Source: Candidatus Latescibacterota bacterium
GTDB taxonomy: Bacteria > Latescibacterota > UBA2968
Direction: 5' to 3'
Assembly: GCA_965207885.1 (NCBI GenBank)
Contig: OZ242311.1
Coordinates: 3,136,001 to 3,200,000 of the forward strand
Length of the DNA: 64,000 bases
The notes below the pieces were generated by a model. It did not search any database, had not been told where the DNA came from, and saw nothing but the letters and a program-made list of their open reading frames with translations. Positions within the stretch are counted from its first letter, which is position 1; each line of letters starts with the position of its first letter. Positions 2,053 to 11,502 of the stretch are shown here, one piece after another. A program made the position numbers and the translations under genes.

Positions 2053-5000
2053 TCATCGAATATACTGAAAAAAAGTATCCTTTGCCACCTGTGTTCCCGC
2101 AACGAGATCCTCAATAATCACAAAGAGACGATTTTGTCCTACCTGTGCGTGTTCGAGATGGACTTCAAGGGGCAACCGTTCCCAATCGCTATTGCCCACC
2201 TGTGTATAGGACAGCGCGATCTCGGGTTGGTCAACAGTACCCGGCGTACGCCTCTGCTCTGTTTCCGCTGCCTTGACTGCGGTTGTCACGCGATAGCGGG
2301 TCTGCCCAAAGTCGTCTTTCGCCAAATTGTACACTTCGCAATAAAACGCGAGTGGATTGGGCGCACGAACAGTCCTCCGAGGATTGGGAACAACCTGCCA
2401 ATTTCCCCGTCGAAATCGCGCAGCGCGCAGCGTATCCGATAGACTCTTAACAAGCATGAGATCGCTGATATGAAGCTGTTCTTTACCGTAGTCATCAATC
2501 GCTACATCAATCGCGAGTACTCCTTGCCGCGCGGTCATAACATCGGTAACGGTCAGTGCAAGATGATACATCCCTGCGGGTACGTCCTGGCGCGTGATAT
2601 CCACGACTTCCTGAGTAACGACATTTGAAGTATCTACAAAATGTTGCACTTTTTGCGTGTTTCGATACACCACGCGATATGCTGAATCGGCCAGCGCAAC
2701 CGCGTGTTCGAGCACCACCTGGGGCTGTTGCCCATCTGTAACGACGAGCAAATTTTCAAGCGGTATGCCATACATAACATCCACGCGGGTTTTGCCTGCA
2801 TTGCCTCGAAAGTCCGCCAGATCAAAGTAAAAAGTGCCCAGCGACAAACGAGGTGCTCTGCGAAATTCGTCGGGCTGGTTCACGGTAGCATTTTTGTAGC
2901 GCATTGCCGGAGCGTGTTCGGCAATGCGAATATTGTCTCTGAGCATAGTGGGAGGAATGGGCGGAATAGGGGCGAAATCAAACCCGGAGACACCACCCAA
3001 TTCGCGTGTAAAATCGATGACTATACCGCCATCTACCTCGGTATAGACCCACGACTCCCAGGGCACGATACTGCGGTCGTGTTGCATGGTAACAGGCGCA
3101 TAAGCTTCCTGAGAAGGGTCGCTACGAGTGGTTTCTTCGCGGCGTCCTCCAACCGGGCCAAAGGTACTCTGATCGGGAATATCGATTACCTGCCTTTCGC
3201 GTTCAGCAGCAAACCCGCGATCGCTCCGAATGGGAAAAACCGGACCAATCAATTCACTGTCATTGGGATCCCGATACAATTCTCGGTACACCTTTTCCTT
3301 CACTTCCTGCACGCGCGTTGAAGGCAGCGAGGAAACCCATCCCGATCGGGCGCGGTAATCGGGTTCACCGTAGCGGATATAGACTTCACCACGCCGATCC
3401 CAGGGATAATTTTCCCGCCCAAATGCCCAGCGCGCTGTCCAGACCCGTTCGTAGTGCGCCAGTTGGCGCTCGTTGTACGCGCTGGACAAATTCGGATTTT
3501 TTGCACGCCAAAACCGCGCCACATACTTTTTCTTTTCTACATCGTCAAGCGCGTGGTAAATCTCTATTTCCTCCCCTGACAATAGTACCCGAATATCATC
3601 GTAAAGCTGGCGTTCACGCGCGTCAATTTGCGCGAGGAATCGCTCGAATAATTGGGTCGATTCCCCGTAGCGCTTCACCCGTAGTGCTTTGATTGCCATA
3701 ATGGGCAACAAATGCGAGGCTTCGGGTTTTTCGCGTGCGATGGGTGCGACAAAACGGTCGATATCCCGATAATTTTTTACTTGCAACAGACTTCTACCCA
3801 TCCGCTCAGCGACTTCGTCGTCGGGGTCGTGCGCCAAATAAACCTGGTAAAACGCCCGTGCCCTTTGATGGTCTTCGCTGTCGGCATACCAATCGCCCAG
3901 CACGCGGTATGGCGGGAGATATGTCGAATCGCGCCGAATGGCGTTTTCGGCAATTTTAACCCCATCGACCATCCCCTGGTCGAGAAGAGCCTGTGCTAAA
4001 AAGCTGTACGCATCCAGATAATCTGGATCGGATCGAATTGCAGATCTGAGTGCTTGCACCCCGTCATCGAAATACCCGCCCCGCCTCAGCAGTACCAGCC
4101 CTTTTCCCGCGCGCGCCTGTGCTGGCGCATCGGGAAAAATCATAGCTTTTTCAAATGCTTCTTCAGCCTGCTTGAGCAATCCCCGCTCGAGATAGGCATG
4201 ACCGAGCACACTCCACGATTTCCCATCTTTTGCCAGGTCGCGCAACGCTGCAATCTGCGTTTCTGCTGCCCCTGCCCCATACTGCGAAAGGTCTTCACCG
4301 AGCCGCCCCATGGTCGCAGATACAATATCCGCCATTTTGTCCCATCGCCAGACCCTTCGCCCGGTTGAAGACCCCATCCAGAGAATTTGCCCGGTCTCTA
4401 CTTCAATCAAACGCAACACCAGACCGATATTGTCTGTTGCGCCATCTTTGCCCAGCACGAGCAAGCTACCCGTCAGGATGGCCTCCGCAAGCGTTGTTTC
4501 TGATGCTTCCCGGCGCAAATCGGGACTGATGCGAGAAAACCGCCCGTGCTCCTGTCTTCCTTTTAATGCTCCTGGTACGAGAGAAAACAGGCCATCGCGC
4601 TGAATCGCATTTTTGAGGTGCATTTCACAATCGGCAGCAAGAGGTAAATAATCCGTGGTATGAAGCGGTTGCAGGAGGATATGATGTGGCAAATGCTCAG
4701 CCTCTGGCGCTGGTACAGGTGTTTCCACTGCGCCAAATCCAAGCGAAGACCGCACTTCGGCAGCGGGAATCTCTCCCACAGATCGATGCGCTCGCGTCCA
4801 AACCCAGGCCGGATTGTCCCGCACATCGCCAGTCCAGACAATCATACCCGTCCGAAGATCAATGAGTTTGAGTTTGATCAAATAAATCCCTGTAAACGCT
4901 ACAGAACCCGTCAAGAGATAAGAGGCGGGAACCTTTTTGCTAAGGAACTCGCGTAGATCGGGAGAAAGCTGTCTATCTGTCTGATCTATTTCCCCCATCG

Positions 5001-5250
5001 GCACATCGGTTTCTATTAAAACAAACCGCGCCCTTCCCAGAGCTGGCACATAAGCACGGCGATGGAGTTCATAGGCGATGCGATCGGCCATATAGACGCC
5101 ATAATCGCCATTGTAAGGAGAATAAAAGGGCGCGATTGCCAATCGGAAGGTGGCGGCAGGCGGCTGAGAAAAAGCACTGACAGGCAACAGAAACGCGGTC
5201 AGTACATAAAGACATGCCAGATAGAATATTTGTCGCCTCAGCAATAGCAT
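2053..5250 (-). CDS. Secreted GWxTD-domain protein with tandem N-terminal CsgG/TolB_N-like domains and TPR repeats
   Basis: Signal peptide (…LLPVSAFS); TPR-like helices; YVARFWRAKNP..NERQLAHYERVWTA..PWDRRGEVYIRYGEPD matches the GWxTD-family core (variant motif); beta-rich C-terminal domains. Confidence 0.8.
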   Translation of the reverse strand: MLLLRRQIFYLACLYVLTAFLLPVSAFSQPPAATFRLAIAPFYSPYNGDYGVYMADRIAYELHRRAYVPALGRARFVLIETDVPMGEIDQTDRQLSPDLREFLSKKVPASYLLTGSVAFTGIYLIKLKLIDLRTGMIVWTGDVRDNPAWVWTRAHRSVGEIPAAEVRSSLGFGAVETPVPAPEAEHLPHHILLQPLHTTDYLPLAADCEMHLKNAIQRDGLFSLVPGALKGRQEHGRFSRISPDLRREASETTLAEAILTGSLLVLGKDGATDNIGLVLRLIEVETGQILWMGSSTGRRVWRWDKMADIVSATMGRLGEDLSQYGAGAAETQIAALRDLAKDGKSWSVLGHAYLERGLLKQAEEAFEKAMIFPDAPAQARAGKGLVLLRRGGYFDDGVQALRSAIRSDPDYLDAYSFLAQALLDQGMVDGVKIAENAIRRDSTYLPPYRVLGDWYADSEDHQRARAFYQVYLAHDPDDEVAERMGRSLLQVKNYRDIDRFVAPIAREKPEASHLLPIMAIKALRVKRYGESTQLFERFLAQIDARERQLYDDIRVLLSGEEIEIYHALDDVEKKKYVARFWRAKNPNLSSAYNERQLAHYERVWTARWAFGRENYPWDRRGEVYIRYGEPDYRARSGWVSSLPSTRVQEVKEKVYRELYRDPNDSELIGPVFPIRSDRGFAAERERQVIDIPDQSTFGPVGGRREETTRSDPSQEAYAPVTMQHDRSIVPWESWVYTEVDGGIVIDFTRELGGVSGFDFAPIPPIPPTMLRDNIRIAEHAPAMRYKNATVNQPDEFRRAPRLSLGTFYFDLADFRGNAGKTRVDVMYGIPLENLLVVTDGQQPQVVLEHAVALADSAYRVVYRNTQKVQHFVDTSNVVTQEVVDITRQDVPAGMYHLALTVTDVMTARQGVLAIDVAIDDYGKEQLHISDLMLVKSLSDTLRAARFRRGNWQVVPNPRRTVRAPNPLAFYCEVYNLAKDDFGQTRYRVTTAVKAAETEQRRTPGTVDQPEIALSYTQVGNSDWERLPLEVHLEHAQVGQNRLFVIIEDLVAGTQVAKDTFFQYIR

Positions 5251-5265
5251 CAAACTCGGCTTTCC

Positions 5266-6042
5266 TCAATTTATGGGCACTGACAGAGAAACTTGAGCTG
5301 GCCCAATCACCAGATGATCCAATACACTGGATAACCAGACCGCCGCGAGCAAGCCCAGGAAGAGATTGGCCCGTCCCGCGCGAGATTCCACGCGTTCAAA
5401 ATTGCGCGTAAACGCATCGGAATCCGTACCTGCTATGGGTTGACCCAGTTGCAAATCATTCAAACGCGTACCGCGATAGGTATTATATGCACTGCGATAG
5501 GATATATCGGTCACAAGCCAGGCCGCAGCGAGCACCGCTGAAGCCCCCATAAAGCCATATCCTCGTTTTTTGTGTCCGCGGTACAATTGTCCCCACCCAG
5601 GCAAGAGAAGCGAACGACCGGCAGCTCCCCAAAATGTAGTTCCCTTAAGGGTTTGTCGCACTGTTTTACGGCGCATGTCCAAAAACAATGCTCGCGTATC
5701 TACAAGTACTTGATCGGGGGGGATGTCCATAATCCCCTTGTTGGTCTCTGGATCCAGGTGAAGTACTTCAACAAGTGCCAGACGCGCACGAGCCGTATCG
5801 CCAGAAGCCATGTGAATGCGCCCCAGATCAAAAAAGATCTCGGCTCTCCGACTCTGCTGAGGTCTATCTAACAAAGGCACCACGCCCAACAAGCTCGGAA
5901 GATGAGCGAGCGTCTCAAATGCGGTAGCATAATCCCCTGCGCGATAGGCGGCCTGTGCTCTTTCAATAATTCCCCGATCATCCGCCCAAGCCGAACCCAT
6001 CGCCAGACAGAACAACACCCAGACGAATAGACTACGGTACAT
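5266..6042 (-). CDS. Exported/membrane protein with TPR and DUF5683-like membrane region
   Basis: Signal peptide (…GSAWA), TPR-like repeat, AAGRSLLLPGWGQLYRG motif followed by hydrophobic helices. Confidence 0.7.
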   Translation of the reverse strand: MYRSLFVWVLFCLAMGSAWADDRGIIERAQAAYRAGDYATAFETLAHLPSLLGVVPLLDRPQQSRRAEIFFDLGRIHMASGDTARARLALVEVLHLDPETNKGIMDIPPDQVLVDTRALFLDMRRKTVRQTLKGTTFWGAAGRSLLLPGWGQLYRGHKKRGYGFMGASAVLAAAWLVTDISYRSAYNTYRGTRLNDLQLGQPIAGTDSDAFTRNFERVESRAGRANLFLGLLAAVWLSSVLDHLVIGPAQVSLSVPIN

Positions 6043-7573
6043 ACGTTATGACTCCCCCACTTTCATCTGAAAGATGGACAAAATTTCTGGCTGATCCACC
6101 GATAGTTAGATCACCTGCTGAGAATGCGCTCGAAGGCAGTGCCCATAAGAGAAGTGGTGTCCCATCTGTCTGAAACACGCGCACCTGCCTGCGATCCAAT
6201 ACAAAAATTTGCCCTGCGGCATTGAGCGTTAAAGCGCGCGGTTCGATCTGAGTATGCAGCACAACCTCCCACGCAATATTGTTGAGCACTTCTCCAGAAA
6301 AGCGCAAAACCCCTCGTTGAACTCGATTTGCCCAGGCGGCCCAGATAACACCATTGTGAACTGCGATATCCACGGGATCCTCTTCGAGATCGAAAGTGCC
6401 CACAGGAGAACCCGCGGCAGAATAGACGCGTAATTGCCCGCCTGTCACAATATAAATCCGCTGTTGATCGTCCTGGGCCAATCGCACATGCGAAGACGCG
6501 CTTACCCAATTGTCGGGAATACGCCACACCGTGTTATTATTTATCAGTTCGATACCCACTACTACAACGCGCCCTGACCGATCCAGACCCCCGATATAAG
6601 CGCGTTGAAAAGCCTCCTGCCCAGCAAGCGAAGGTCCAGCCAGATCCACCGATTGCGACACGAGGTCGTTCAATCGCGGAAAAGAAGTCCCGACCAGGTG
6701 GCGTGATAGCGCGTTGGGAATATCGACACTCAGGGTATGTCGCAGGCGAGAAAGCGAAATCTGATTGGGGCGAACAATCAGGGCGAGCATGTCGGCTTCG
6801 CCATCGGAATCTGCTGCTGCAAGCCTCATCCGCTCATTCGTTCCGCTTAGAGCCTCTACGATGTGTCGCCCCACTTCGCGGTAAAATTGCACACTCACAC
6901 TGCGACTTGTGAGCCGCACATCCGTCGAAAGGGGAGACCTTGAGACACGCATAGACCTTATGGCATAAGCATAAGAGCGGGTGTCGGAAATCGACCGATC
7001 CCAAAAGGAGGTCTGTGCACGGCTTTGTATGACGGCAAGAATTTTTTTATCACCACCTTCTGGTGTCCTCAGAATTTCATAACTTCTCGCCGTGTTTCCC
7101 TCATCATGCCAGACGAGCTGCACAGCAAGAGCAACGGGGTCGCGCCGAATTTCGCGTAAACCAGCACCGGGGATAGGGACTTCAACAGCAGAAGTACTCA
7201 CCAGGCCACCCTCACTGTGTTCGGCAACCACGCGGTATTGCAGGCGCTCGCCAGCAATCAGTTTTTCGTCTCGAAACGCACCCACAGTCGCGTATTTACC
7301 ATTGGCATCGGCACCGGAAGAAAGCTCAATATTTCTAAAACCGGAAATATCTCGACGCTGGAGGACAAAGTTCTCAACGCGCTTCTGCCCGAGATACTCC
7401 CACTGCACAGTGACCACTCCCCAGGTGTTCTCCTCAACATTATAGGAGGCATCGAGAATGTGGATAAGCGGTGTATTGTATGGGTCTATGCTCAGATCTC
7501 TTTGGGGGTTATAACATCCAATCAGAAGGCCCATAGCACACATAAATAGCAAATGAGAGAAGCGGTTTCCCAT
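6032..7573 (-). CDS. Lipoprotein with FnIII-like repeats and a C-terminal beta-propeller (NHL-like)
   Basis: Lipobox LLIG-C; FnIII-like segments (VQWE..FRDEKL..LQYRVVA; LVWH..FWDRSI..YAYAIRS); propeller-like blades (PVDIAV, PRALTLNAAGQIFVLD). Confidence 0.7.
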   Translation of the reverse strand: MGNRFSHLLFMCAMGLLIGCYNPQRDLSIDPYNTPLIHILDASYNVEENTWGVVTVQWEYLGQKRVENFVLQRRDISGFRNIELSSGADANGKYATVGAFRDEKLIAGERLQYRVVAEHSEGGLVSTSAVEVPIPGAGLREIRRDPVALAVQLVWHDEGNTARSYEILRTPEGGDKKILAVIQSRAQTSFWDRSISDTRSYAYAIRSMRVSRSPLSTDVRLTSRSVSVQFYREVGRHIVEALSGTNERMRLAAADSDGEADMLALIVRPNQISLSRLRHTLSVDIPNALSRHLVGTSFPRLNDLVSQSVDLAGPSLAGQEAFQRAYIGGLDRSGRVVVVGIELINNNTVWRIPDNWVSASSHVRLAQDDQQRIYIVTGGQLRVYSAAGSPVGTFDLEEDPVDIAVHNGVIWAAWANRVQRGVLRFSGEVLNNIAWEVVLHTQIEPRALTLNAAGQIFVLDRRQVRVFQTDGTPLLLWALPSSAFSAGDLTIGGSARNFVHLSDESGGVITYVP

Positions 7574-7801: not shown

Positions 7802-8488
7802 ATGAATAAAAAATCAGATCCGTGGATTACGCCTGAAATCCCGCGTATTAAAAATCCAGCCTGTGATCTTAAACGCACGTACAAGCACGTATTTCGCATC
7901 AGCATGGTGATTGCATTTATCTTGCATGTGGGCATAGGGCTTATGTTTCCCACATTCACATCTGGCACGCGCAAAATAGAGCGACGCACCATCATCATCG
8001 AGACCGTCGATATACCGGAAACCCGTCAAATTCACCGCGCGCCGCCACCGCCACGGCCGTCTATTCCCATTGCAACCGAAAGCGAGGATGTGCCCGACGA
8101 CGTCACGATTGAAACTACCGACCTCGATTTCGATAAGGTCGATCTCCATGTGCCCCCACCCCCTAGTGAGACTACTGTAATAGAAGAACCAGAAGAAGAG
8201 ATACTCGAATATTTTATGGTCGAAGAAAAACCCGTGCTCATCCATCGCGTAGCACCAGTATATCCCCCGGTCGCTCTCAAGGCGGGTATTGAAGGCACCG
8301 TTCACTTGAAAATACTGGTTGACAAAGCCGGAGTAGTCGAACAGGCCCTTGCTGTCAAAGGCAAAGAAATTTTTTACAAAGCGGCCCTTCAGTCCGTTAA
8401 TCAATACCGTTTTAAGCCAGCCCGTCAAAATGATAGACCTGTTAAAGTCTATCTCGTCATACCCATACGTTTCCGAATTACTCGATAA
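7802..8488 (+). CDS. tonB: Energy transducer TonB family protein
   Basis: N-terminal TM with His (ILHVG), Pro-rich linker, and TonB_C domain (PVYPPVALKAGIEGTV...FKPARQNDRPVKV..IPIRF). Confidence 0.9.
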   Translation: MNKKSDPWITPEIPRIKNPACDLKRTYKHVFRISMVIAFILHVGIGLMFPTFTSGTRKIERRTIIIETVDIPETRQIHRAPPPPRPSIPIATESEDVPDDVTIETTDLDFDKVDLHVPPPPSETTVIEEPEEEILEYFMVEEKPVLIHRVAPVYPPVALKAGIEGTVHLKILVDKAGVVEQALAVKGKEIFYKAALQSVNQYRFKPARQNDRPVKVYLVIPIRFRITR

Positions 8489-8503
8489 TTTACGAACGCA
8501 AAC

Positions 8504-8544
8504 ACCAACCCCCCGACAAGTTTATCGGGGGGTTGGTTATTTTT
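8504..8544. terminator. Intrinsic terminator between convergent tonB and parA-like genes
   Basis: 13-bp stem ACCAACCCCCCGA / TCGGGGGGTTGGT followed by TATTTTT. Confidence 0.8.
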
Positions 8545-8566
8545 AGACATTGCTGTTGCACACCAC

Positions 8567-9307
8567 TCATCTAAGCATTTGCAATTCTGCCCACAGTTCT
8601 CGATACGCCTGAGTTGCCTTTGAATGCGGCTTGAAGCATGCCACGGGTTGTCTCGCCCATCCCATCTGTTCTACATCTGTCGTGTAAGGAATTTGCGCGT
8701 TCAAAAATTTTCCCTCGCGCTCGCCCACCTGTGCGATCATTTCCCTGTGCATTGTCTTGCGCTGTTCAACCATTGAAAAAAACGACACCATTTTTTTGCG
8801 CTTTAATTTATTTTTTTTAAAGAACTCTACCAGTTTTTGATGCGTCAACATCGACAGAGTTGTCGGAATACACGGAACAACCACATAATCGGCTGCCCTG
8901 AAAACATGCTCGGCAAGGAGCGTCAGATTGGGCGGGCAATCGAAAAAAATATAATCGTAATCTTTCCGCATCGGCGTCAACAGACGCTTCAAATAGCTTT
9001 TGTTTTTTGCCCGCTCGTCCAACCCCAAATCCATATTGCGAAAAGACATGGCCGAAGGCAATAAGTCCAGACCTTCAAAGTCCGTCCCTCGAATATTATT
9101 GTCTAAGTGCTTACCGCCCTTCAAGAAACGCTTGCGCCCAAACTTTTTTTTGGCTCGAATGCGAAAATTAAAAGCCGCAGCCCCTTGAGGGTCTAAATCG
9201 CACAGCAACGCAGTCGCACCAGAACGGACCGCTTCATAAGCCAGATTCACAGCGGCGGCGGTCTTCCCTACGCCACCTTTCATGCTGTATAACGCAAAGA
9301 TACTCAC
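8567..9307 (-). CDS. ParA/MinD-family ATPase
   Basis: Deviant Walker A KGGVGKT, DLDPQG, FFDCPP; GTG start with GAGG RBS; directly downstream of the CHAD gene. Confidence 0.92.
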   Translation of the reverse strand: MSIFALYSMKGGVGKTAAAVNLAYEAVRSGATALLCDLDPQGAAAFNFRIRAKKKFGRKRFLKGGKHLDNNIRGTDFEGLDLLPSAMSFRNMDLGLDERAKNKSYLKRLLTPMRKDYDYIFFDCPPNLTLLAEHVFRAADYVVVPCIPTTLSMLTHQKLVEFFKKNKLKRKKMVSFFSMVEQRKTMHREMIAQVGEREGKFLNAQIPYTTDVEQMGWARQPVACFKPHSKATQAYRELWAELQMLR

Positions 9308-9329
9308 ACCCGCTCCTCAATGAGATTCA

Positions 9330-10859
9330 CTATCCAAATAAATCGCGGTACAAACGAACATTTTTCTTTTTTGCATAAACGGCAAACGCACTGGCAAATT
9401 CGCGCCGAACAGCTTGCTGCTGGTCGTGCAAACGCGCAATAAGCCCGCCAATAGCCGCGGCACAAAGCAGGCGGTCCGCACGCCGGCTGCGGGGCAATAC
9501 TTCGTTTAAATAGGTCGTCAATTCCCACTGTTGTACCGATAAATCGTTAAAATCTCCCAGATTATCCTGCAATTTCTTCATAGACCCGATGAGTTTATCC
9601 ATCTTATCTTTAGGAAAAAAAGAGGCAAAAAATTCTAACAAATATCGCAATTTCTTGCAGTCGATTCGCAAATCGTGCAATGCCTCGTCGGGCGTATGGT
9701 CTCCTATCGCCTTGCCCCTTTTTAGCACCAGCTTAAAACGCTTAAAAATAAATTTTCGCGCAAGGGCTATAGCCAGCACAGCGGAATCCCTCCCCCTCTG
9801 AGACTGTGCCCCCTGCAAAAAAGCCGCCCATGAATCCATCAGGTCCAGATATTCAGGTGCATCGAGAACCTGTACCATATCGTTAAGGGCGCGCCGTCGC
9901 TCACTTTTTAAGCGCGAAAACACGGCATCCAGCCCGGGTTGTAGTGACCGGGGCAACATCGCGCGATAAGTCTCTTCATCGAGCAAATACACATCCAGAT
10001 CGCGCAACCGATTGGTCGATCTGCCCAATTGCCGAAACTCATCCTTAAAATGTGCTACAGCACCTTCGGGCAAAACGCCTTTGATTTGACTCAGCGCCGA
10101 CCGCGTGCGCCGAATCGCAACCCGAAAATCGTGCAGAAATTCCGTATCCCAATCCGCGCGAATGCCCGTTTCATTTTGGCGCATCACATCGTTCAGACAT
10201 CTCAAAATCTCACATGTTGCTTCACGCCCACTCGCCTCGTGATTCAGGTCGAGATTCAGCTTTGAAGAATAATCGCCCGGCACGCATCCAGCGAGATCCA
10301 TCACGCGTTCAAATACATCTTCTGCCACATGTGCAACATCCAATTTCATAAAACGGCGGCGCAAATTCTCAAAATCGCGCTCATATCCCCGCACGCTTCG
10401 GCAAGTTAAAGTCGCAACGTGTCCATTTTCTGTGCTGGTATGTGTGAGGAACAACCGAACAACTGTCTTTTCATCTGTATTCAAAACGCCAAATCCGCAA
10501 ACCTTCTGCCTCACCTGTGCTTGAAGTAACAGCGCTCGAACTGAGAGCGCGCCCCGTAGTGTGTCGCGTAACTCGCCCTCTGGAAACATCCACCAGAAGC
10601 GGCCTTCCAGATGTTGTTTCATCTCAATCTGATCGCGCACCAAAGGATATTCACCACCTGAAATACGCTGTAAATACACCGCATTTCCCGCTTGTATCAG
10701 CGCGAGCCCCTTTTGATACAAGCGCCAGTCAAACGTGTCGAAATACCGCACCGTCTTCTCAACCTCAGATACAGATACCAGACGCTCGGGCACGAGTTGT
10801 TCGACCACATTCCATCCATGTGGTTCACGCAAAACATAAGTTTCACTGCGGGTGATCAT
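9330..10859 (-). CDS. CHAD domain protein with degenerate N-terminal CYTH-like domain (polyphosphate-binding)
   Basis: YFDTFDWRLY (CYTH-like); EFLHDFRVAIRRTRS, RDLDV, LHDLRIDCKKLRYLLEF and LQDNLGDFNDLSVQ are CHAD motifs. Start chosen at ATG 10859 with a GAGG RBS (track gives 10907). Confidence 0.9.
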   Translation of the reverse strand: MITRSETYVLREPHGWNVVEQLVPERLVSVSEVEKTVRYFDTFDWRLYQKGLALIQAGNAVYLQRISGGEYPLVRDQIEMKQHLEGRFWWMFPEGELRDTLRGALSVRALLLQAQVRQKVCGFGVLNTDEKTVVRLFLTHTSTENGHVATLTCRSVRGYERDFENLRRRFMKLDVAHVAEDVFERVMDLAGCVPGDYSSKLNLDLNHEASGREATCEILRCLNDVMRQNETGIRADWDTEFLHDFRVAIRRTRSALSQIKGVLPEGAVAHFKDEFRQLGRSTNRLRDLDVYLLDEETYRAMLPRSLQPGLDAVFSRLKSERRRALNDMVQVLDAPEYLDLMDSWAAFLQGAQSQRGRDSAVLAIALARKFIFKRFKLVLKRGKAIGDHTPDEALHDLRIDCKKLRYLLEFFASFFPKDKMDKLIGSMKKLQDNLGDFNDLSVQQWELTTYLNEVLPRSRRADRLLCAAAIGGLIARLHDQQQAVRREFASAFAVYAKKKNVRLYRDLFG

Positions 10860-11319
10860 CGGGCGTACCCTCATGTGCGAGGATTGCATTTTTGTAACGG
10901 TCATCATCGGTCACCTCTCGCCCAAACCAGAACGGCGGGACAAAGCGCGAACTATCATCTACGGTCTCAAACTCGACTTCGGCCACTACCAGGCCCTCCA
11001 GGCGACCGCGGTACACATCCAGTTCTATTGTCCACGTCCCTTCGACTATCTCATAACGCACTTTTTCGACTCGCCTGTCCGCAGTTAAAGGCCAGAGGCT
11101 ATCAAATTGCGCTCGGGTCAATTCCACCTCGACTTCCGTCCGTTGCACACCCTTGCCCTGTTTCACGGTCTGATAAAAATGCTCGCCTTTGCGACGCAGA
11201 CGAATCTCCACGCCATTCTCGCTTACCGAGAGATAGCCCTGTGAGATTTCTACTCCTGTACAAGCCGTTAGATCCGGCATTTTTCGCACACAAAACTTCC
11301 GCTCAATTTCTATGGCCAT
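10843..11319 (-). CDS. CYTH domain protein (inorganic triphosphatase/adenylate cyclase-like)
   Basis: EIERKF, ISQGYL, IRLR, RTEVE, VEKVRY, AEVEF and FGREVTDDDRYKN; start at MAIEIERKF. Confidence 0.92.
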   Translation of the reverse strand: MAIEIERKFCVRKMPDLTACTGVEISQGYLSVSENGVEIRLRRKGEHFYQTVKQGKGVQRTEVEVELTRAQFDSLWPLTADRRVEKVRYEIVEGTWTIELDVYRGRLEGLVVAEVEFETVDDSSRFVPPFWFGREVTDDDRYKNAILAHEGTPDDHPQ

Positions 11320-11502
11320 AACAAAACGCGAGTTCCCAGATGTGAAAAGCAGGAGGGGATGCTTTATACCCGGTAATTGGCGAATAGTAATGATAACACA
11401 CCTCATCGCCGAAAGCAATTTTTAAGATGATGCATCGCACCGTTTTTGGTGTATATTGAAATATAACAATCTTGTACTACGACACCAAAAGGGGATCGCA
11501 CT

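Follow-up and report, generated by a model that had tools for sequence, protein, structure and literature searches.

A ParA-type ATPase and the CHAD adaptor encoded beside it: a strong candidate for machinery organising polyphosphate storage granules

What could a partition-type ATPase do when the gene beside it encodes a CHAD protein instead of ParB? This question is raised by three genes in a stretch of 64,000 nucleotides from a Candidatus Latescibacterota bacterium (contig OZ242311.1, positions 3,136,001 to 3,200,000), hereafter called the window, with coordinates counted from its first letter. Its minus strand encodes, between positions 11319 and 8567, a small stand-alone CYTH protein of the triphosphate-tunnel (TTM) type, a larger protein with a TTM-like domain and a long CHAD domain, and a ParA/MinD-type ATPase. 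A sequence-only reading of the window had proposed that the ATPase uses the CYTH-CHAD protein as an adaptor in order to space or segregate granules of inorganic polyphosphate (polyP). Every prediction of that reading that could be checked was borne out. The evidence collected here makes it very probable that ATPase and CHAD adaptor are physical partners acting on polyP, and it makes the pair a strong candidate for machinery organising polyP storage granules.

Direct reading of the letters confirmed the proposed layout of three co-oriented minus-strand genes. The small CYTH/TTM gene (10843..11319, NE1496-like) starts with an ATG at 11319 and stops at 10843, encoding 158 aa. It is followed by the adaptor gene (9330..10859, 509 aa), with which it had been said to overlap; the overlap amounts to 17 nt, out of frame with the CYTH stop, and would grow to 65 nt if the alternative ATG at 10907 were the CHAD start. 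The longest CHAD open frame indeed begins at 10907, and the ATG at 10859 is the start common with a relative, locus L035. The start was set at 10859 because the L035 frame opens only four codons before the equivalent ATG. The spacing of 22 nt given earlier for the distance from the CHAD stop to the ParA start is exact, and this gap (9308..9329) contains a ribosome-binding-like GAGGAG stretch ahead of the ParA GTG. The ATPase gene itself (8567..9307) runs from this GTG at 9307 to a stop at 8567 and encodes 246 aa.

The ATPase matches the AAA_31 profile with an E value of 1.3e-34 (120 bits, cut-off 27) and the CbiA profile with 49 bits (cut-off 25.4). Its deviant Walker A motif KGGVGKT (aa 10-16, at 9260..9280 on the minus strand), which includes the signature lysine K10, is invariant in alignments of 23 and of 56 sequences. 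The same holds for D37, D39 and D123, of which we take the first two to be the switch I / Walker A' aspartates and the third to be that of Walker B. The AlphaFold2 model of the protein (pLDDT 86.2) finds its nearest folds, by Foldseek, among Soj/ParA proteins, with template modelling (TM) scores of 0.76-0.84, E values of about 1e-17 and 24-27% identity. The best sequence matches in the PDB are likewise partition proteins, namely the ParA of 8RAY, HpSoj and TtSoj.

This resemblance does not make the protein the chromosomal Soj of its host. A canonical parA-parB pair is found elsewhere in the genome, at about 2.42 Mb, where the only ParB_N match of the genome (C1:2,421,481) lies beside the Soj gene, 0.7 Mb from the locus. 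Identity between the ATPase and the host's own Soj is 32% and is confined to the first 144 residues. The claim that the window holds neither parB nor an obvious parS also stood, as the sole genomic ParB_N match lies outside the window and parS hits are at chance level: the canonical parS consensus gave a single hit with three mismatches in 64 kb against 0.34 expected, and 28 of 100 shuffled sequences did equally well.

The subfamily to which the ATPase belongs is sharply delimited. A census of 1.84 billion representatives returned 333 clusters matching the ATPase at E<=1e-30, 5767 at 1e-10 and 23964 at 1e-3. The ATPase was scored against 151 genomes sampled evenly from the phylum Latescibacterota. 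In 36 of them the match is 248 bits or better, with identities of 50% or more. The next-best matches in the phylum stay at 85 bits or less, with full-length identities no higher than 31%, and none lies in between, which leaves a gap of at least 160 bits. Whether a CHAD-linked clade of ParA proteins exists had been put forward as a check on the original proposal; the answer is a subfamily set off from other ParAs by an empty range of scores. Identity of the ATPase across phyla amounts to 47-59%. The ATPase is thus a member of a sharply bounded, CHAD-linked subfamily.

The linkage to CHAD is consistent both within the phylum and beyond it. A close-relative set of 41 genomes contains 34 carriers, and three further carriers were found in the phylum. 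In all 37 of these Latescibacterota genomes with this ParA, a CHAD gene lies directly upstream on the same strand, at a distance of 195-412 nt between the CHAD and ParA matches; four genomes of the same family have neither gene. Beyond the phylum, a scan of one genome per species yielded 592 confirmed relatives. The 80 top-ranking loci were studied, and their CHAD open reading frames (ORFs) were found by iterated hidden Markov model searches of all ORFs in these loci. A CHAD-homologous ORF abuts ParA in 79 of the 80. In 69 loci this is one undivided ORF of 480 aa or more, and in the other ten it is split, cut by a contig end or fragmentary. At the sole miss (L044), the contig ends 702 nt upstream of ParA. 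The order is CHAD followed by ParA in 77 loci and is reversed in two Entotheonella loci.

Carriers among these best 80 loci span at least 13 labelled phyla. The labels comprise Chlorobiota, Thermodesulfobacteriota (including a cable bacterium), Calditrichota, KSB1, Verrucomicrobiota, Lentisphaerota and Spirochaetota, together with Deferribacterota, Chloroflexota, Pseudomonadota, Tectimicrobiota, Gemmatimonadetes and ANME-1/Methanophagales archaea. Green sulfur bacteria, the cable bacterium Electrothrix, Desulfurivibrio, Roseivivax and ANME-1 archaea are among the named carriers, and all 12 Chlorobiota CHAD genes of the tree set adjoin this ParA. Chlorobium limicola, Roseivivax isoporae LMG 25204 and Desulfurivibrio sp. 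D14AmB belong to the carriers identified by name. With a recurrence of 79/80 and 37/37, the gene arrangement is far from chance.

The partner encoded beside the ATPase is a two-domain protein. The 509-aa product matches the Pfam CHAD family with an E value of 1.7e-59 (202 bits, cut-off 25.6), and its AlphaFold2 model is of high confidence (pLDDT 91.7, pTM 0.90). The long CHAD domain, aa 199-509 (9333..10265, minus strand), matches the Chlorobium tepidum CHAD (CtCHAD) structure 3E0S with an E value of 2e-62, and also 6QV7 and the polyP complex 6QVA. It superposes on the CtCHAD structures with Z scores of 35-37, root mean square deviations (rmsd) of 1.3-1.7 Å and 41-43% identity (Z 37.2 and 1.7 Å for 6QV7), and it shows the two four-helix bundles of the long pore-forming CHAD type. 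A ParA-linked CHAD from Chlorobium matches 3E0S with an E value of 1.6e-101. The CtCHAD structure paper (PMC6537752) describes CtCHAD as a long, pore-forming CHAD that binds polyP. It also reports that alanine substitution of the SsCHAD equivalents of CtCHAD H253, R256, R260 and R296 weakens or abolishes polyP binding. The corresponding residues here, H243, R246, R250 and R286, are invariant in 56/56 aligned ParA-linked homologues, as are H395, R398, K402 and R405 in the same 56 sequences. Judged by this close homology to CtCHAD, the adaptor should bind polyP.

The N-terminal domain of the adaptor, aa 1-198 (10266..10859, minus strand), is the predicted ParA-binding module. It adopts an eight-stranded TTM tunnel fold in its model, with Z scores of 10-13.8 and rmsd values of 3.4-4 Å over 145-178 aligned residues. 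Matches include AtTTM3, thiamine triphosphatase (ThTPase), SaTTM, class IV (CyaB-type) cyclases and the polymerase domain of Vtc4. The fold is revealed by structure comparison only: Pfam finds no CYTH match in this domain, and an hhalign profile comparison with the small CYTH family gave a probability of 0.7%. The catalytic ExExK motif is missing, as strand 1 reads SETYVL and the columns in question are unconserved among 56 homologues. The loss of this motif, together with the TTM and CHAD folds, leads us to regard the adaptor as a YgiF-like TTM-CHAD protein, the TTM domain of which has most likely ceased to be an enzyme.

A complex of the two proteins, which the sequence-only reading had suggested modelling, could be predicted under controlled conditions. 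The full-length adaptor and the ATPase were each entered as an alignment, with the 56 loci identical and identically ordered in both. This gave ipSAE values of 0.71, 0.70 and 0.71, compared with 0.00 for the best of three controls. In calibration, 58 of 80 solved complexes and 2 of 110 mismatched pairs attained that ipSAE mark; these counts hold only roughly here because our own alignments were used. The runs have at least 84% of their contacts in common, with partner pLDDT values of at least 84. We know of no solved ParA-TTM complex, and recall by the prediction model is therefore unlikely.

In the predicted interface, adaptor residues 124, 129-132, 135 and 156-159 (encoded within 10383..10490, minus strand) face ParA residues 48-51, 72-76, 78, 81 and 219. 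The contact site would lie directly after switch I of the ATPase. Most of the ParA side falls in a subfamily-specific segment, aa 48-76 (9080..9166, minus strand), in which the contact stretches 48-51 and 72-76 surround a flexible, strongly basic loop. The residues involved are strongly conserved. On the adaptor, K131 and G158 are found in 56/56 sequences, R/K157 in 55/56 and Y159 in 53/56; mean conservation of the interface is 0.71, as against 0.33 for the rest of the N-domain, a value that none of 20000 random draws reached. On ParA, D76 and R219 are conserved in 56/56, R49 and I72 in 55/56 and D81 in 54/56. Opposite charges are paired in the model, with R49 of ParA placed against D129/E130 of the adaptor, D76 against K131 and D81 against R157. 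The prediction supports binding and docks ParA where the TTM-like domain is best conserved; on both faces, the contacts consist of the subfamily-specific residues of highest conservation.

The small CYTH protein is of a different kind. It carries a Pfam CYTH match (E 3.2e-7), and its closest PDB sequences are 3TYP (E 4.6e-36) and 2FBL, which is NE1496 (E 1e-35), a protein that we take to be a specific tripolyphosphatase. Its ExExK motif is intact: E4, E6 and K8 are invariant among 17 homologues, as are the tunnel residues R40, R42, K53, R60, E62, E64, E114 and E116. A homologue lies within 6 kb of the ParA-CHAD pair, on either side, in only 17 of the 80 loci. The idea of a CYTH-CHAD protein as adaptor is thereby refined: the adaptor would be the 509-aa degenerate TTM-CHAD protein itself, and the separate small CYTH is an accessory member of the module. 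This enzyme would most likely remove short polyP or triphosphate and represent the metabolic side of the module.

Enzymes of polyP metabolism recur around the pair. To annotate the neighbourhood, flanking ORFs were clustered by BLAST and one representative per cluster was annotated by Pfam, within a 6-kb range. As the sequence-only reading had anticipated in naming ppk, ppx and sixA, the genes ppk1, ppk2 and ppx and SixA-type His_Phos_1 domains recur near the pair. PPK1 is encoded in 22/80 loci, mostly directly upstream of CHAD, PPK2 in 17/80 and Ppx/GppA in 9/80, while NUDIX and metallophosphoesterase proteins are each encoded in 10/80. At least one of PPK1, PPK2 and Ppx is present in 34/80 loci, and any of six enzymes (these three with small CYTH, NUDIX and metallophosphoesterase) in 51/80. 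In the window, the CYTH gene alone accompanies the ParA-CHAD pair. The host genome has ppk1 and a two-domain ppk2, both elsewhere; Ppx-GppA (PF02541) was not found in it (completeness 97%).

Several individual loci illustrate how such neighbourhoods are built. The fullest version of the module was seen in another Candidatus Latescibacterota genome (CP070631; L054:1365-8388), where co-oriented genes encode CYTH, NUDIX, PPK1, the TTM-like/CHAD protein, ParA and Ppx/GppA. In the Entotheonella loci L081:5920-9064 and L103:5977-8898, in which ParA precedes CHAD, PPK2 and Ppx clusters are found nearby. The CHAD frame of L081 (739 aa), the one of the two on which Pfam was run, has an N-terminal match to His_Phos_1 (SixA/PGAM-type), and that of L103 is of comparable size (704 aa). 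Archaeal pairs occur in three ANME-1/Methanophagales loci, with ParA identities of 57% (L036 and L037) and 56% (L045). L036 is the one scanned with Pfam: its pair is immediately preceded by PPK1, and downstream come a fusion of a metallophosphoesterase with a Ppx-GppA_III/HD domain and then Ppx. By cluster membership, L037 and L045 have parts of this enzyme set.

The history of the two genes was followed in FastTree trees of ParA and CHAD built from the same 56 loci. The ParA tree puts the three Latescibacterota lineages at three separate positions and contains several well-supported groups with members from different phyla. The two trees have 16 of 53 splits in common, several of them cross-phylum. 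Such groups unite Thermodesulfobacteriota with Spirochaetota, Chloroflexota with Desulfobacteraceae and Entotheonella, and an alpha- with a gammaproteobacterium. These shared cross-phylum groupings indicate that the pair moves as a unit. Pairwise ParA and CHAD distances correlate with r=0.62, which 0/2000 permutations reach; this correlation is inflated by shared ancestry, and therefore only joint inheritance and transfer are read from it. The ParA and CHAD genes are inherited and transferred together. The archaeal locus L036 groups weakly with the window's lineage in the ParA tree.

Fusions of the ATPase to other domains were found among its relatives. ParA is fused to CYTH in 7 of 22 long relatives (P0138, P0144, P0156, P0180, P0181, P0187 and P0258), which form a sister branch of about 44% identity; the CYTH part is YjbK-like, has an intact ExExK motif and is joined by a low-complexity linker. 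L055:5989-7242 likewise holds ParA and a small CYTH in one open frame. In P0121 and L065:5974-7674, ParA is fused to an S6PP/HAD phosphatase of the sucrose-6-phosphate-phosphatase type (E about 1e-65), and merely an 89-aa CHAD fragment lies upstream in L065. One further candidate, P0206 (710 aa), was considered as a CHAD-ParA fusion and set aside. Its CHAD match covers the 228-position profile only as far as position 132, and a stretch of about 85 residues rich in Cys, Arg and Gly separates it from the ParA part, so that the apparent fusion is probably a frameshift artefact.

How might the ATPase and its adaptor act on polyP? We lean, by a small measure, toward ATP-driven placement and partition of polyP granules in a McdAB-like manner, with the dead TTM domain as activator. 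This reading follows family precedent and explains why a non-catalytic cargo binder is the sole invariant partner. The CHAD domain would hold polyP at the granule surface, and the TTM-like domain would present its acidic/basic patch (D129-E130-K131-T132 and R157-G158-Y159) to the ATPase. Given the complete set of deviant Walker A, switch and Walker B residues, the ATPase is expected to form ATP-sandwich dimers like other ParA/MinD proteins. The matrix for such dimers may be the nucleoid or a different polyanion. When the adaptor on a granule touches them beside switch I, at aa 48-51 and 72-76, they would hydrolyse ATP and be released. Much as with McdAB and carboxysomes, the ATPase would thereby be depleted locally, which could keep granules apart, place them and see that both daughter cells receive a share.

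Several observations weigh against granule positioning. It is drawn only by analogy with other ParA/MinD proteins that have an adjacent partner, from which we infer the ATPase activity, the matrix and the effect on granule position. A profile alignment places the stretch PRNVRL / PKSVKL of chromosomal ParA and H. pylori Soj opposite IPY..D in the subfamily. The two basic residues of this stretch are presumably non-specific DNA contacts, and at these Soj positions the subfamily has Y208 and an Asp. Nucleoid binding is hence uncertain; the ATPase does have other basic surfaces. To our knowledge, the activators of ParA proteins are short N-terminal peptides, which leaves contact through a folded domain without precedent, and the complex was modelled with one ParA monomer and without nucleotide. 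The linkage count covers the best 80 of 592 matches, and 29 of these 80 loci have none of the six polyP-related enzymes within 6 kb. In addition, three sister-family genomes (G026, G029 and G036) have CHAD frames of 359, 617 and 315 aa and lack this ParA, so that CHAD proteins also exist independently of the ATPase. Since these CHADs without ParA are of other sizes, the ATPase appears tied to the TTM-like plus long-CHAD form of about 510-530 aa and not to CHAD generally. Finally, recruitment of enzymes or a regulatory function would account for the fusions to CYTH and S6PP/HAD no less well than transport.

The last point leads to the alternative that we take most seriously, even though we consider it doubtful. 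The ATPase might be a nucleotide switch or scaffold for polyP metabolism, one that recruits or gates PPK, PPX, TTM enzymes and phosphatases, or controls granule nucleation or size, with no transport involved. Besides the ParA-CYTH fusions with their intact ExExK and the two ParA-S6PP/HAD fusions, this would agree with neighbours that are mainly enzymes, with the non-basic residues at the Soj DNA-contact positions and with the presence of family assembly regulators, BcsQ and FlhG/FleN, among the fold matches. However, each enzyme neighbour is optional, and the partner that does not vary (79/80 loci) is a non-catalytic CHAD adaptor, the own TTM domain of which is devoid of the catalytic motif; the nearest sequence and fold relatives, moreover, are partition ATPases. 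A basic segment of the ATPase opens another option. Residues 46-77 of the window's ParA contain 11 K/R against 2 D/E, 10 of 11 other sampled sequences are similarly basic here (8-12 K/R against 2-3 D/E), and pLDDT values of 57-63 predict the loop to be flexible. PolyP is a polyanion like the DNA backbone, and polyP itself might serve as the matrix: ATP-dimers would coat or bridge it via the basic loop, the CHAD adaptor would regulate turnover, and the resulting shell, under the control of ATP, would set granule size and prevent fusion. The Tyr and Asp in place of the canonical DNA-contact residues are in line with this option, which we nevertheless regard as quite unlikely. The loop could bind DNA equally well, its flanks are already used in the predicted adaptor contact, and we know of no ParA/MinD member with an inorganic matrix. 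In a bolder form, which we hold to be rather unlikely, the ParA cycle would run directly on polyP via the basic loop and not on the nucleoid, the degenerate TTM domain would constitute a new class of folded ParA activator, and a self-organising shell would set granule number, size and inheritance.

Two further explanations are far less probable. That this is an ordinary DNA-partition ParA of a chromosome, plasmid or mobile element, placed beside polyP genes by accident, is very hard to believe, despite a fold and closest solved relatives of the Soj/ParA type and the patchy distribution and horizontal transfer of the module. The adjacency to CHAD in nearly every locus argues against accident, parB and parS are missing at the locus, and the sole ParB_N accompanies the real Soj at a distance of 0.7 Mb. 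The locus is, moreover, carried on a single 6.2-Mb contig, and no mobile-element Pfam domain was found among the 11 window ORFs scanned. The other idea is a module for defence or stress: a ParA-like NTPase would sense invaders or act on them, and CYTH/CHAD would serve as effector or signal part. It draws on a 2026 preprint, according to which ParA-like NTPases have been widely recruited for immunity, in combination with variable effectors. CHAD and CYTH have 0 occurrences each in the main text of that preprint. The neighbours here are housekeeping polyP enzymes, not variable effectors, and the high conservation across phyla is unlike that of fast-evolving defence genes; we rate this idea as highly improbable too.

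Placement of polyP granules by the ATPase and its adaptor thus stays the reading that we favour, and it bears on an acknowledged open question, namely how polyP granules are placed and inherited in bacteria. A ParA together with a polyP-binding adaptor offers a concrete gene pair, with interface residues, for that question. If the reading is true, an inorganic storage polymer would join the cargos of ParA/MinD proteins, and a catalytically dead triphosphate-tunnel domain would be a new type of ParA partner. A shell formed on a polyP matrix, if real, would occur in numerous phyla, with ANME-1 archaea, cable bacteria and green sulfur bacteria among its owners.

The terminator claimed after ParA was found as a hairpin of 15 pairs (8537..8504) with a T-rich tail, starting 30 nt past the ParA stop. 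Its 16-nt arms are 94% complementary, and it would act bidirectionally (8504..8537, no strand assigned) between ParA and a convergent TonB_C gene on the plus strand (7802-8488, Pfam match). Just past this gene, three consecutive minus-strand genes (2053-7573) encode a protein of 513 aa with no Pfam match, a TPR/DUF5683-like protein of 258 aa and a TPR protein of 1066 aa, the N terminus of which gives a weak LpoB-like match. No sigma-70-like promoter was found on the minus strand at 11320-11502, in a scan limited to sigma-70-like sites, and no repeat array was found at the locus.

RNA contigs from four libraries of one study, metatranscriptomes labelled sponge metagenome, match parts of 8400-11500 with 0-3 differences. 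Those without differences include 9490-9705, 9796-10015 and 8970-9143, in the CHAD and ParA genes. Matches of such closeness indicate that this organism or a very close relative was present in the sponge libraries. No RNA-library contig spans a gene junction, and several parts of the locus are uncovered. Since no junction is bridged and DNA may have been carried over into the libraries, the contigs are not usable as evidence of transcription or co-transcription.

The sequence-only reading knew of no characterised example of such a system, and literature searches (supplements outside their range) likewise found no ParA-polyP system and no experiment on any member of the subfamily. The printed precedent found in the same searches is one synteny remark on a single genus, Acidithiobacillus, in which folD, ppk, parA and CHAD form a conserved cluster (Microorganisms 2024, PMC10892726). 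That paper calls the ParA a plasmid partition protein and gives no further functional reading. A 2025 review lists AlgP as the only polyP granule spacing factor in its table, with ATP dependence marked unknown, and states that energy use in polyP granule placement is still to be established. A 2026 study of the cyanobacterium S. elongatus describes polyP as nucleoid-associated and regularly spaced, independently of McdAB and on an unclear basis; the candidates that it puts forward are CHAD proteins, with a function given as unknown.

Compared with known systems, the pair combines familiar parts in a different way. It shares with ParABS (Soj/Spo0J) the ATPase fold and motifs (KGGVGKT, the switch I Asp and Walker B), but it has a CHAD protein instead of ParB, no parS and a gap of at least 160 bits to the host Soj. 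Its adaptor resembles E. coli YgiF (5A60) in having a TTM tunnel followed by CHAD, the two aligning over residues 6-509 with a Z score of 18.9. PMC6537752 describes the TTM of YgiF as active and its CHAD as short and lacking a pore, whereas here ExExK is lost, the CHAD is of the long pore-forming type and there is a dedicated ATPase partner. CtCHAD (3E0S, 6QV7, 6QVA) is a close relative of the CHAD domain, with polyP-contact residues that are invariant here; its crystal, however, covers residues from 207 on (207-522 are named in PMC6537752), and the whole word ParA has 0 occurrences in that structure paper. AlgP, a histone H1-like protein of Pseudomonas aeruginosa, also spaces polyP granules and links them to the nucleoid. 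In contrast to the pair, it is a passive DNA-binding tether with no homology to adaptor or ATPase, and the AlgP paper does not mention ParA.

A parallel in design is McdA-McdB. The predicted cargo differs, being polyP granules here, and so does the adaptor, which is folded (TTM-like plus CHAD) where McdB is disordered or coiled-coil. The predicted contact is made via a folded domain and not via an N-terminal peptide, and DNA binding by the ATPase is doubtful in the present case. On the other hand, McdA structures are among the matches of the ATPase, both by sequence (6NON/6NOO, E about 7e-12) and by fold (6NOP/6NON). The two systems resemble each other in their arrangement, with the gene of a small ParA-type ATPase beside that of a cargo adaptor, no ParB, no centromere and a cytoplasmic cargo that is not DNA.

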